Positions 45,112 to 47,898 of a DNA stretch of 64,000 nt are shown here, piece by piece. Both the position numbers and the translations under genes were made by a program. Below the pieces are notes generated by a model. It did not search any database and was not told where the DNA came from. It saw only the letters and a program-made list of their open reading frames with translations. Numbering within the stretch: the first letter of the stretch is position 1; every line of letters starts with the position of its first letter. Source of the stretch: Candidatus Bathyarchaeota archaeon (lineage in GTDB: Archaea; Thermoproteota; CALKCG01; B24). The stretch is taken from NCBI GenBank assembly GCA_018396755.1, contig JAGTQM010000004.1, positions 17,099 through 81,098 on the forward strand. Reading direction: 5' to 3'.

Positions 45112-46203
45112 TTGAAAACCCTCCTCTATAAAGAAGACTGGGAAAGAGTTTCTGAAACCTATGAAGCTTGGTGGGAAGGTGAACTGACCAGACCAATAAT
45201 ACATTTAACGTATATACCGCCCAATATAGACCTTGTCGATTACTCTCTGACCTTAAGTTGGGCTTTTATGAGATATCACCCGGAGAAGGCTTTAGAAGCC
45301 CTCTTCGAATACTTCTCCAAAACAATATTCATGTGTGAAGCTTATCCCAACGTATTCATAAATATAGGACCCGGTGCCTTATCTGCTTTCCTAGGTGCGA
45401 ATGTAAATTTCAACCCCAGTGCGGAAACATCCTGGTTTAAAGGATCGTTTTCTTTAGATGATCTTCTTAATGTTGAATTAAACCCTGAGAATAAGTGGTG
45501 GCGTTATGTGATCGAATGTACTGGGAAGGCTTCAGCCATGTGCAGGGATAAAGCCATAGTCGCCTTTACAGACCTTTTAGACGTACTTACAAGTCTAGTT
45601 CATCTTAGAGGTGGAGCGTCGAAATTGATTAAAGACGTTTTTCTTAACCGCGTCAAACTGATGAAGGTTTTAAACCATCTGCATCAAATCTGGTTTTACT
45701 GTTTCGAAAAAATCTCAGAGCTAATTGATACGAGTACTTATGGTTTTTCAAATTGGGCTGCATTATGGAGTAGGCGTAAATCGTTTATACTTCAATGTGA
45801 CTTTAGCGTATATCTCTCACCCAAAATATTCGACGAATTCATACTTCCCCTAGTAGTTGAGGAGTGTAGATTCTTTGAGAGAAGCTTCTGGCATTTAGAC
45901 GGACCTCTTGAAATCCCCCACCTAGATAAACTCTTAAACATAAGCGAGCTTAACGGTATACAATGGATTCCTGGAGCTGGAAACCCGGATCCAGGTGACA
46001 ACTACTGGATTCCAATGTATAGAAAAATACAGAGAGCTGGGAAGCTCATCCAGCTCCCCGGAATCCCTATATCTAAAATAATTCCAGTCTTAGATCAAAT
46101 ATCGCCTAAAGGTGTTTTCATTCAAACTTCAACTCTGAGCCTCGAAGTTACTGAAAACTTCTGCAGAAAAATGTCTGAGAAATACGGTGTCCGACTTAAG
46201 TGA
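45112..46203 (+). CDS. Hypothetical protein
   Basis: 363 aa. TTG start. No confident motif. Confidence 0.35.
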   Translation: MKTLLYKEDWERVSETYEAWWEGELTRPIIHLTYIPPNIDLVDYSLTLSWAFMRYHPEKALEALFEYFSKTIFMCEAYPNVFINIGPGALSAFLGANVNFNPSAETSWFKGSFSLDDLLNVELNPENKWWRYVIECTGKASAMCRDKAIVAFTDLLDVLTSLVHLRGGASKLIKDVFLNRVKLMKVLNHLHQIWFYCFEKISELIDTSTYGFSNWAALWSRRKSFILQCDFSVYLSPKIFDEFILPLVVEECRFFERSFWHLDGPLEIPHLDKLLNISELNGIQWIPGAGNPDPGDNYWIPMYRKIQRAGKLIQLPGIPISKIIPVLDQISPKGVFIQTSTLSLEVTENFCRKMSEKYGVRLK

Positions 46204-47031: not shown

Positions 47032-47200
47032 TTTAACGCCTCTGACGTTATAAAACCAGGCTATTACAGGTAATAAGCTTTAGTCTTCAGCGAATCTTTC
47101 ACAATAAGGCTACATCGAACACTCTCTATAGCACTTTTTATGTAGACAACTTGAAGATAAGTATAAATGAAAGTAGCATAAGGTATTACTTGGTGGTATA

Positions 47201-47467
47201 GTGGTTAACAAGAAAATAAGCATAAGTCTTCCAGAAGAACTTCTAAAAAGTATAAATGAATTGTCTAGACAGTTAAGTCTGACGCGAAGCGAGCTTATAG
47301 CTAGAATATTAGAGGAGAAACTGGAAATGTTAACAGCTGGAAAAAATCATAAATATCCAACAGTACTCTGGAAGCTAAGTACAACTGGGCTTCTCAAATT
47401 AAGGTCTCCACGTTTTTTAGGTAGGACATTAAAGGGTAAATGGATTGTTGAAGAGGTTGAAACCTGA
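47201..47467 (+). CDS. Ribbon-helix-helix (CopG/Arc-like) DNA-binding protein
   Basis: KKISISLPEELLKSINELSRQLSLTRSELIARILEEKL is an RHH pattern (beta-strand, helix, helix). GTG start with a GGTGG upstream. Its stop overlaps the next start as TGATG. Confidence 0.55.
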   Translation: MVNKKISISLPEELLKSINELSRQLSLTRSELIARILEEKLEMLTAGKNHKYPTVLWKLSTTGLLKLRSPRFLGRTLKGKWIVEEVET

Positions 47468-47898
47468 TGAAGTTAAACTATCCATATATGAGTAACGGAT
47501 ATACTGTTCATGGAGAAAAAATACCAGATATACCCATAGCATACTTGATGATGAAAGCCGGTAGATTTAGAGCTCGTGGACCTGCAATAATCGATACAGG
47601 TTTTGACGGCGGAGTATACCCAAACATGGAGATCATAAGAATATTTGAAGGTTTAGAGCCTAAGGCGAAAGTAAATTTTGAAAATCCACTATTCGGCGTA
47701 TCAGAGTTTGAAGTATATTCTGCTGAAGCATTCCTATATAATGGAATACATCAGATGGCTTTAGGAGATGTAAGAGTGTACATACCTACAGAGCCAGAGC
47801 TCATAACAGGTGATGTCCTCTTAGGGAGAGAAGTCATTCAGAAAATAAAGCAATTAACTTTAAATAACCAGGAGATGATTTCAATAATCGAACTCTAA
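47467..47898 (+). CDS. Clan AA retropepsin-like aspartic protease, DTGF type
   Basis: AIIDTGFDGG active-site motif and C-terminal VLLGREVIQ (retropepsin GRD/N-like flap motif). 143 aa. Translationally coupled to the upstream RHH gene. Confidence 0.55.
   Translation: MKLNYPYMSNGYTVHGEKIPDIPIAYLMMKAGRFRARGPAIIDTGFDGGVYPNMEIIRIFEGLEPKAKVNFENPLFGVSEFEVYSAEAFLYNGIHQMALGDVRVYIPTEPELITGDVLLGREVIQKIKQLTLNNQEMISIIEL

Follow-up and report, generated by a model that had tools for sequence, protein, structure and literature searches.

A ribbon-helix-helix protein paired with a retropepsin-like protein in archaea: a possible two-gene module of toxin-antitoxin type

Type II toxin-antitoxin modules with ribbon-helix-helix (RHH) antitoxins, such as ParD-ParE, CcdA-CcdB, VapB-VapC and BrnA-BrnT, consist of two small proteins encoded by overlapping genes, with the antitoxin gene first. 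The antitoxins carry an RHH domain followed by a disordered, neutralising C-terminal tail, and the modules show a patchy distribution, a variable genomic context and decaying copies. The partners of RHH antitoxins are nucleases, gyrase poisons, kinases, acetyltransferases and the like, and to our knowledge none has an aspartic-protease fold. In this study, we analyzed a gene pair that resembles such modules in layout and encodes an RHH (CopG-like) protein (ORF1) and a small, free-standing retropepsin-like protein (ORF2). The pair lies in a stretch of 64,000 nucleotides from Candidatus Bathyarchaeota archaeon (assembly GCA_018396755.1, contig JAGTQM010000004.1, positions 17,099 to 81,098 of the forward strand). 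This whole stretch is called the window here, and positions are counted from its first letter. The 2009 census of type II toxin-antitoxin systems contains no aspartic protease partner (PMC2701414).

Pairs of a small repressor and a dedicated small protease also resemble this locus. ImmA cleaves ImmR, IrrE cleaves DdrO, and SpoIIGA processes pro-sigma-E. The ImmR/ImmA, COG2856-Xre and IrrE/DdrO pairs have the same gene order as the pair studied here (PMC2701414). Their enzymes are zinc metallopeptidases and their repressors are of the helix-turn-helix/Xre type, whereas the present pair combines an aspartic-protease fold with an RHH protein.

ORF2 shares with retroviral proteases, such as that of human immunodeficiency virus type 1 (HIV-1), the fold, the D-T-G-x-D loop, the P-T-x-P loop before the G-R-x helix and a flap-like hairpin, the motifs being matched by eye. 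ORF2 is about 40 residues longer than these proteases and has a gene of its own, whereas they are cut out of a polyprotein. The characterised prokaryotic retropepsin-like enzymes are bacterial, and one of them, RimB, is tied to ribosome modification (PMC4140852, PMC11957051, PMC11957791). APRc (RC1339 of Rickettsia conorii), RimB and RloA are single-domain proteins expected to form homodimers, as is ORF2. APRc is anchored in the membrane, and the Rlo enzymes are secreted proteins (PMC4140852, PMC11957051). The sequence identity between APRc and ORF2 is 10-11%, and the APRc, Rlo and RimB enzymes have DTGA where ORF2 has DTGF. No pairing of APRc, RimB or RloA with an RHH gene is described in the literature on these enzymes that was examined.

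The closest curated family, TIGR03698 (the AF_0612 family, "clan_AA_DTGF"), contains small free-standing prokaryotic and archaeal proteins which, like the ORF2 family, have an hh-D-T-G-F loop (h, hydrophobic). ORF2-family proteins are about 35 residues longer than its 107-position model. TIGR03698 is probably the same group as COG5550. A 2009 survey stated that "little is known" about the prokaryotic clan AA groups COG3577 and COG5550; archaeal retropepsin-like proteins have been noted since about 2001-2009 and described as poorly understood (PMC2642776). In Sulfolobales, a small protein with a retropepsin domain has been reported near type III CRISPR loci (PMC3973734). An earlier note on this DNA had called the function of archaeal DTGF-type retropepsins essentially unknown, and our literature searches agree. 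Full-text searches returned no description of an RHH-retropepsin pair; most subscription journals were outside their coverage, and an earlier mention is possible.

All features of the pair lie on the plus strand. According to the list of open reading frames (ORFs), ORF1 (47201..47467) starts with GTG, encodes 88 amino acids (aa) and ends with TGA at 47465-47467. ORF2 (47467..47898) starts with ATG at 47467-47469 and encodes 143 aa. The junction reads acc-TGATG-aag (overlap at 47465..47469), with one base common to the TGA stop and the ATG start, and this overlap suggests that the translation of the two genes is coupled. The 3' end of ORF1 includes a Shine-Dalgarno-like GAGGT (47453..47457), 9 nt ahead of the ATG of ORF2, and we infer that it may act as the ribosome-binding signal for ORF2. 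Of 41 distinct loci, 34 have a GAGG/GGAG-type motif within the final 40 nt of the partner gene. ORF1 is 100% identical to NCBI MBS7611119.1, annotated as "ribbon-helix-helix protein, CopG family", and ORF2 is exactly MBS7611120.1, a "hypothetical protein"; both entries are from Candidatus Bathyarchaeota archaeon and their accessions are consecutive. Homologues at 35-90% identity retain the ORF2 motifs. Because of the adjacency of the two entries, these motif-keeping homologues and the recurrent two-gene arrangement, ORF1 and ORF2 are considered real genes and not chance frames.

The structure of ORF2 was modelled with AlphaFold2 from the family alignment. The model had a mean predicted local distance difference test score (pLDDT) of 93.2 and a predicted template modelling (TM) score of 0.86, and no residue fell below 70. 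It is nearly all beta-strand, with one short helix (residues 121-124) opened by G120-R121-E122. The best Foldseek match in the PDB was 5c9f, Rickettsia APRc (E 2.7e-5, probability 1.0, TM-scores 0.59/0.63), and aspartic proteases made up 28 of the top 29 matches. These included the proteases of equine infectious anaemia virus, Rous sarcoma virus, feline immunodeficiency virus and human T-lymphotropic virus 1, as well as the pepsin-type enzymes renin, plasmepsins and BACE. Against the predicted viral structures of BFVD, the top 37 matches were almost all aspartic proteases or retro-/pararetroviral polyproteins carrying one, a few being without a name, and the best reached E 1.2e-6 and a TM-score of 0.70. 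By this model, ORF2 is a retropepsin-like protein with the clan AA fold and an intact catalytic signature. Since it has no hydrophobic N-terminus, it is presumably cytoplasmic.

The catalytic signature was examined in an alignment of 37 sequences. The segment I-I-D43-T44-G45 (47587-47601) has the hydrophobic-hydrophobic-Asp-Thr/Ser-Gly pattern of the clan AA loop. Within the active-site motif D43-T44-G45-F46-D47-G48-G49 (47593..47613), T44, F46, D47, G48 and G49 were invariant and D43 and G45 were at least 90% conserved; D43, G45 and D47 were invariant in the wider alignment, in which T44 was at least 90% conserved. G120 was invariant, and R121 and E122 were at least 90% conserved. This second motif, G120-R121-E122 (47824..47832), which opens the single C-terminal helix, is part of LLGREVIQ, encoded at 47818-47841. 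The conserved blocks of the family are a near-invariant G-P-A-I-I-D-T-G-F-D-G-G, I-P-T-E-P-E and V-L-x-G-R-E-I-L-N, together with an N-terminal extension, Y.Y..DG....G.KIPDIP. When the family profile was aligned with HIV-1 protease by hhalign, 18 residues around the DTG loop alone were matched (P=0.012; D43 to D25, D47 to D29), which is consistent with clan AA membership and is not independent proof of it. We take G120-R121-E122 to be the counterpart of HIV-1 G86-R87-N88, judged from the known HIV-1 sequence and not from a superposition. Matched by eye, P107-T-E-P110 … G120-R-E would likewise parallel P79-T-P81 … G86-R-N, and the beta-hairpin 67-91 of the model appears to occupy the position of the flap.

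The result of the comparison with curated sequence families was different from that of the fold search. Neither ORF2 nor the 37 aligned homologues matched any Pfam model even at E<=10, and ORF2 also matched no NCBIfam model at this level. When PDB sequences were searched with ORF2 alone or with the family profile, only chance-level matches were obtained (E >0.09). TIGR03698 was the only curated model touched by any family member: 21 of the 37 had sub-threshold matches, the best at E 2.3e-4, and a more distant relative, P0108, scored 29.5 bits against a cut-off of 57.35. No family member had a significant match to the curated clan AA models (Pfam CL0129 families, TIGR03698 and TIGR02281). Because all TIGR03698 scores remained below the cut-off, the ORF2 family appears from its sequences to be a separate, unmodelled sister family of TIGR03698 and not a member of it. 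The earlier note had read the locus as an 88-aa RHH gene whose stop overlaps, as TGATG, the start of a 143-aa gene with DTGFDGG and LLGREVIQ motifs, and all of these readings were confirmed. Its naming of ORF2 as a clan AA protease of the DTGF type was borne out for the motif and, by the model and the sub-threshold TIGR03698 matches, for the fold; by the cut-off of TIGR03698, ORF2 falls outside the curated DTGF family.

Some other proteins with similarity to this family were observed. P0108 (126 aa, ALLDTGFDG; L050:2203-2881) is overlapped by an upstream 118-aa ORF without a Pfam match, which lacks the YPTVLW/RSPR tail described below and whose RHH character is not evident. At three loci, a second small clan_AA_DTGF-like ORF lies no more than about 2 kb from the module: L025:1277-1654 (+), L030:846-1205 (+) and L034:1166-1588 (-). 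Their TIGR03698 E-values are 1e-12, 1e-3 and 1e-2, respectively, all under the cut-off, and Asn stands in the place of the catalytic Asp (ALVNTGF, ALLNTGF and AYVNSGY). An RHH partner was looked for next to these three paralogues and none was found. Judged by this substitution, they may be inactive relatives of the fold. A repetitive 787-aa protein from the search of representatives, P0103, was matched by the protease profile at four places (E 6e-6) through its …IGSAKIYVKTNSNFYTGESV… repeat. As it lacks a DTG motif and fits no Pfam family convincingly, it is probably no true relative, the match reflecting a beta-strand/loop motif only.

Homologues of ORF2 were rare and, where their origin was scored, archaeal. 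A word-indexed search returned 59 homologues, all archaeal and unnamed. A profile search returned 270 clusters at 90% identity; no Pfam domain was assigned to any of them, and one bore the JGI label "predicted aspartyl protease". An exhaustive HMMER scan of 1.84 billion representatives at 50% identity returned 53 with E<=1e-3. In a scan of one genome per prokaryotic species, 42 loci were found, all archaeal. They belong to Bathyarchaeia, Thermoprotei (Desulfurococcales and Thermofilaceae), Nitrososphaeria-related lineages, Brockarchaeota, Methanomethylicota, Hadesarchaea, Methanobacteriota and the Asgard lineages Odin-, Baldr-, Hel-, Frey- and Jordarchaeia. The family is thus spread patchily over Thermoproteota, Asgard archaea, Hadesarchaea and Methanobacteriota.

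The pairing was conserved across these loci, as a survey proposed in the earlier note was meant to learn. With this pairing and the clan AA fold of the model, neither of the two outcomes that the note had named as refuting its reading was observed. An upstream partner with the RHH-plus-tail architecture was present in 41 of the 42 species genomes; at the remaining locus, L021, both genes are frameshifted. The partner ORF (+) typically has 68-109 aa, the exceptions being 158 aa at L044, owing to an insertion, and 159 aa at L017, owing to an upstream start. Its stop lies from -17 to +30 nt from the aligned N-terminus of the protease, except at L027, where the tblastn match is N-terminally truncated. 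Among metagenome loci, 74 of 80 had the partner; four of the other six are at contig edges and two are decayed (L084 and L086), so that 74 of the 76 loci with room for a partner were paired. On contigs with distant homologues, an ORF of 85-89 aa overlapped the protease start every time, and some of these ORFs were labelled RHH_1 in precomputed Pfam annotation. The divergent relative P0075 also has an overlapping partner, of 76 aa (Pfam DUF7557), with the end …RGPSPRL…EEWTVLD. The only long homologue, P0042 (208 aa), was considered as a natural RHH-protease fusion and rejected, as it is a frameshift read-through.

The pairwise identities of partners and proteases were correlated (r=0.89), and a Mantel test of tail against protease gave r=0.82, with none of 2000 permutations reaching the observed value. 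This indicates that the two genes are inherited and diverge together. The 143 flanking ORFs of 35 non-redundant loci fell into 119 clusters, the largest with four members, which indicates that only the pair is conserved. One metagenome-assembled genome (JAOZGF02, Thermoproteota INS_M21_B31) carries two divergent copies of the module, L034 and L044. Decayed copies were also seen: both genes are frameshifted at L021 (2700-3450), the protease has an in-frame stop at L037 (2990-3440) and a stop plus a deletion at L049 (2990-3440), and in the first ~750 nt of L084 and L086 only the end of the partner tail is left and the protease is frameshifted. Some of these may be assembly errors of metagenomes. 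Overall, we regard the identity of the two parts and their conserved pairing as highly probable.

ORF1 matched the Pfam RHH_1 model at residues 6-42 (47216..47326) with 27.3 bits, above the gathering cut-off of 20.5, and gave weak sub-threshold matches to the HicB-like, CopG_antitoxin, BrnA and VapB models of Pfam and NCBIfam. Most partner homologues carry a precomputed PF01402 assignment. When ORF1 was modelled alone with an alignment, residues 12-25 and 29-45 formed helices, and block means of pLDDT were 74-83 between residues 11 and 40. Both its profile score and its strand/helix/helix arrangement agree with the RHH family layout. Residues 44-88 all had pLDDT <50.

This low-confidence region contains the best-conserved part of the protein. 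Partner alignments from many loci showed a moderately conserved N-terminal RHH domain, a variable linker at about residues 43-51, and a strongly conserved 37-residue C-terminal tail (residues 52-88, YPTVLWKLSTTGLLKLRSPRFLGRTLKGKWIVEEVET; 47354..47464) with the consensus YPTVLWKL-x3-G-x-LKLRSPR-x2-GR-x-I-x-G-x-W-x-VEE. Mean pairwise identity was 0.47 in the tail and 0.39 in the RHH domain. Y52, P53, V55, L56, W57, K58, R68, S69 and P70 are invariant in close homologues, and P53, L56, P70, W81 and E84 are at least 90% conserved over all subfamilies. The partner at L044 (158 aa; L044:721-1197) has a repetitive insert, in which …MEKLAEKTGELGAA… occurs twice, between the RHH domain and the tail, which indicates that the linker tolerates large insertions. 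A segment that is conserved and has no predicted fold alone is expected of a region that folds on a partner. We therefore propose that the tail is a protease-binding or substrate segment.

The reading that we favour is a self-contained, horizontally mobile two-gene module with type II toxin-antitoxin logic and a cytoplasmic retropepsin-like effector. An RHH dimer would repress the operon at a conserved promoter block (see below). The ORF1 tail would fold onto the protease and keep it from acting, by lying in the substrate cleft beneath the flap or else by preventing dimer formation. Loss or degradation of the partner would release the protease dimer, which would then cleave cellular or viral proteins and so arrest growth. 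We infer this reading from architecture. The genes are small and co-directional, the antitoxin-like gene comes first, they overlap or nearly so, and they are paired across loci. The patchy phyletic distribution and the variable genomic context fit a mobile module, and the predicted anatomy of ORF1, a DNA-binding domain with a low-confidence yet best-conserved tail, resembles that of an antitoxin. Taken together, the RHH protein with its conserved tail that is predicted to be disordered alone, the retropepsin-fold protein with an intact active site, the coupled pairing, the autonomy, the patchiness and the decay fit type II toxin-antitoxin modules, in anatomy and in natural history, better than any alternative. 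As a mechanism, we consider it plausible, a little short of evenly balanced.

Inhibition of an aspartic protease by a disordered segment has a parallel. IA3, a disordered inhibitor, folds in the cleft of yeast proteinase A, and the complex of the two (1g0v) was among the Foldseek matches of ORF2. IA3 may serve as a precedent by functional analogy only: its sequence is not related to the ORF1 tail, it has no DNA-binding domain, and its target is a two-lobed pepsin-type enzyme. Contacts between tail and protease were searched for by inter-protein covariation (mutual information with average product correction, 91 unique pairs, effective number of sequences 51). W57 of the tail was coupled with two residues at the presumed tip of the flap, P74 and E72, which is no more than suggestive in an analysis dominated by clade markers.

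Several observations weigh against the toxin-antitoxin reading. The top couplings of the covariation analysis include K40 of the RHH helix at the strength of tail positions, which indicates that clade markers dominate the signal, and the interface was not located. No relatives of ORF2 were found in IMG/VR viral contigs, PLSDB plasmids had no match to ORF2 or to its distant relative P0109, and no PADLOC defence model was matched. The pair's own neighbours in the window are ordinary metabolic genes, for an HpcH/HpaI aldolase, an alpha/beta hydrolase, a GH4 glycosidase and an M14 peptidase, together with an unassigned ORF of 363 aa. At other loci, roughly nine of 41 small flanking ORFs match the PIN, MazE, Pol-beta nucleotidyltransferase and UPF0175/DUF3368 families, which are typical of toxin-antitoxin systems. 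Thermophilic archaeal genomes are rich in toxin-antitoxin genes, so that these neighbours speak only weakly for the reading. Finally, an aspartic-protease toxin was neither found in the searched literature nor is one known to us, and the putative effector role is argued from architecture.

A second explanation, and the main rival, is that the pair is a proteolytic switch. On some signal, the protease would cleave its own RHH partner in or near the tail, for example at K-Y52/P53-T-V-L (a slash marks the scissile bond), and the operon, or a regulon elsewhere in the genome, would then be repressed differently. The order of repressor and then protease, with coupling, is that of immR-immA and the COG2856-Xre pairs (PMC2701414). 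The conservation of the catalytic motif implies that proteolysis matters. The residue before the near-invariant P53, exactly at the boundary of linker and tail, is Tyr in most loci, Phe in L061 and L062, and His in L072 and L134. Retroviral proteases cut at aromatic/Pro sites, such as SQNY/PIVQ and SFNF/PQITLW in HIV-1. The start of the tail, K-Y/P-T-V-L-W-K (47354-47374, residues 52-58), resembles the HIV-1 transframe/protease junction F/P-Q-I-T-L-W-Q and the MA/CA (matrix/capsid) site Y/P-I-V. It may be cut by the protease, or it may mimic a strand.

This likeness to retroviral sites, however, concerns a short motif. In a divergent clade, and only there, the residue before P53 is Gly, and Gly-Pro offers a poor P1 residue for retropepsins. 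Moreover, the downstream tail segments LRSPR and W.VE are as conserved as the aromatic/Pro position, which suggests an extended binding interface instead of a single scissile site. ImmR/ImmA-type pairs usually reside in mobile elements that they control or beside controlled genes, whereas no conserved neighbouring gene family, and hence no conserved target gene, accompanies the RHH-retropepsin pair, which argues against a purely regulatory role. The switch is possible and, in our judgement, rather unlikely. It is not exclusive of inhibition by the tail, because the tail could be a slow substrate.

A third explanation is that ORF2 does not act as an enzyme and serves the RHH protein as a co-repressor, ligand sensor or dimerisation scaffold, comparable to the accessory domains of NikR/MetJ type. 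A tight 1:1 genetic coupling to a transcription factor would fit this role, as would the position of ORF2 outside every curated protease family by sequence, and the nearby Asn-for-Asp paralogues indicate that the fold can persist without the nucleophile-activating Asp. Pseudo-enzymes, however, usually lose catalytic residues, and D43, T44, G45, D47, G120 and R121 are invariant or at least 90% conserved, which is the pattern of an active enzyme. We consider a non-catalytic ORF2 quite improbable. Chance adjacency of two unrelated genes, or a mis-called ORF2, for which only the missing family annotation of ORF2 could be cited, has a negligible probability and is effectively refuted by the pairing in more than 110 independent loci of many archaeal phyla with different flanks, by the joint divergence and decay of the genes, and by the confident structure model.

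The region upstream of the pair was compared with that of the Bathyarchaeia locus L008, whose protease is about 90% identical to ORF2. The two loci share an identical block of 38 nt (47153..47190) and diverge immediately before it. Within the block is a TATA-like TATAAAT (47162-47168), 33-39 nt ahead of the GTG of ORF1. Judged by this identity, the block is a candidate for a combined promoter and operator. A weak palindrome, AAGTA-n11-TACTT, was noticed in the block, at about 47171-47191. A search for operators yielded a single weak inverted repeat of 9 nt, its arms separated by 108 nt, and no operator is claimed.

Two other observations concern the window. The 363-aa ORF at 45112-46203 (+), two genes upstream of the pair, is long and apparently intact and has no Pfam match at E<=1e-5. 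The motif IADTGA at about 5553 (-) was considered as a sign of a second protease-like gene and rejected, as it sits in a 557-aa ORF read as a thermosome-type chaperonin; no second gene of this kind was found in the window.

Taken one by one, the parts of this module belong to known kinds, namely an RHH regulator and a clan AA fold. Their combination, the unmodelled protease family and the dedicated tail are undescribed in the literature searched. That this is the first toxin-antitoxin-type module with an aspartic protease effector restrained by a disordered tail fused to an RHH domain, perhaps processed at an aromatic/Pro site, is a claim that we put forward as tentative and doubtful. If it is true, aspartic proteases would be a new enzymatic class among toxin-antitoxin and defence effectors, the tail would be a natural, genetically encoded and specific peptide inhibitor of a retropepsin-like enzyme, and one lineage of archaeal retropepsin-like proteins would have a testable function. 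The ORF2 family is rare but clean, and both proteins are small, so biochemical and structural tests would be cheap. If the module works as proposed, the presence of the family in Asgard and TACK archaea would also bear on the origin of the retropepsin fold of eukaryotes and retroelements. If processing at the aromatic/Pro site were also true, this archaeal pair would embody the logic of a protease joined with its own cleavage or inhibition site, which is later seen in retroelement polyproteins.

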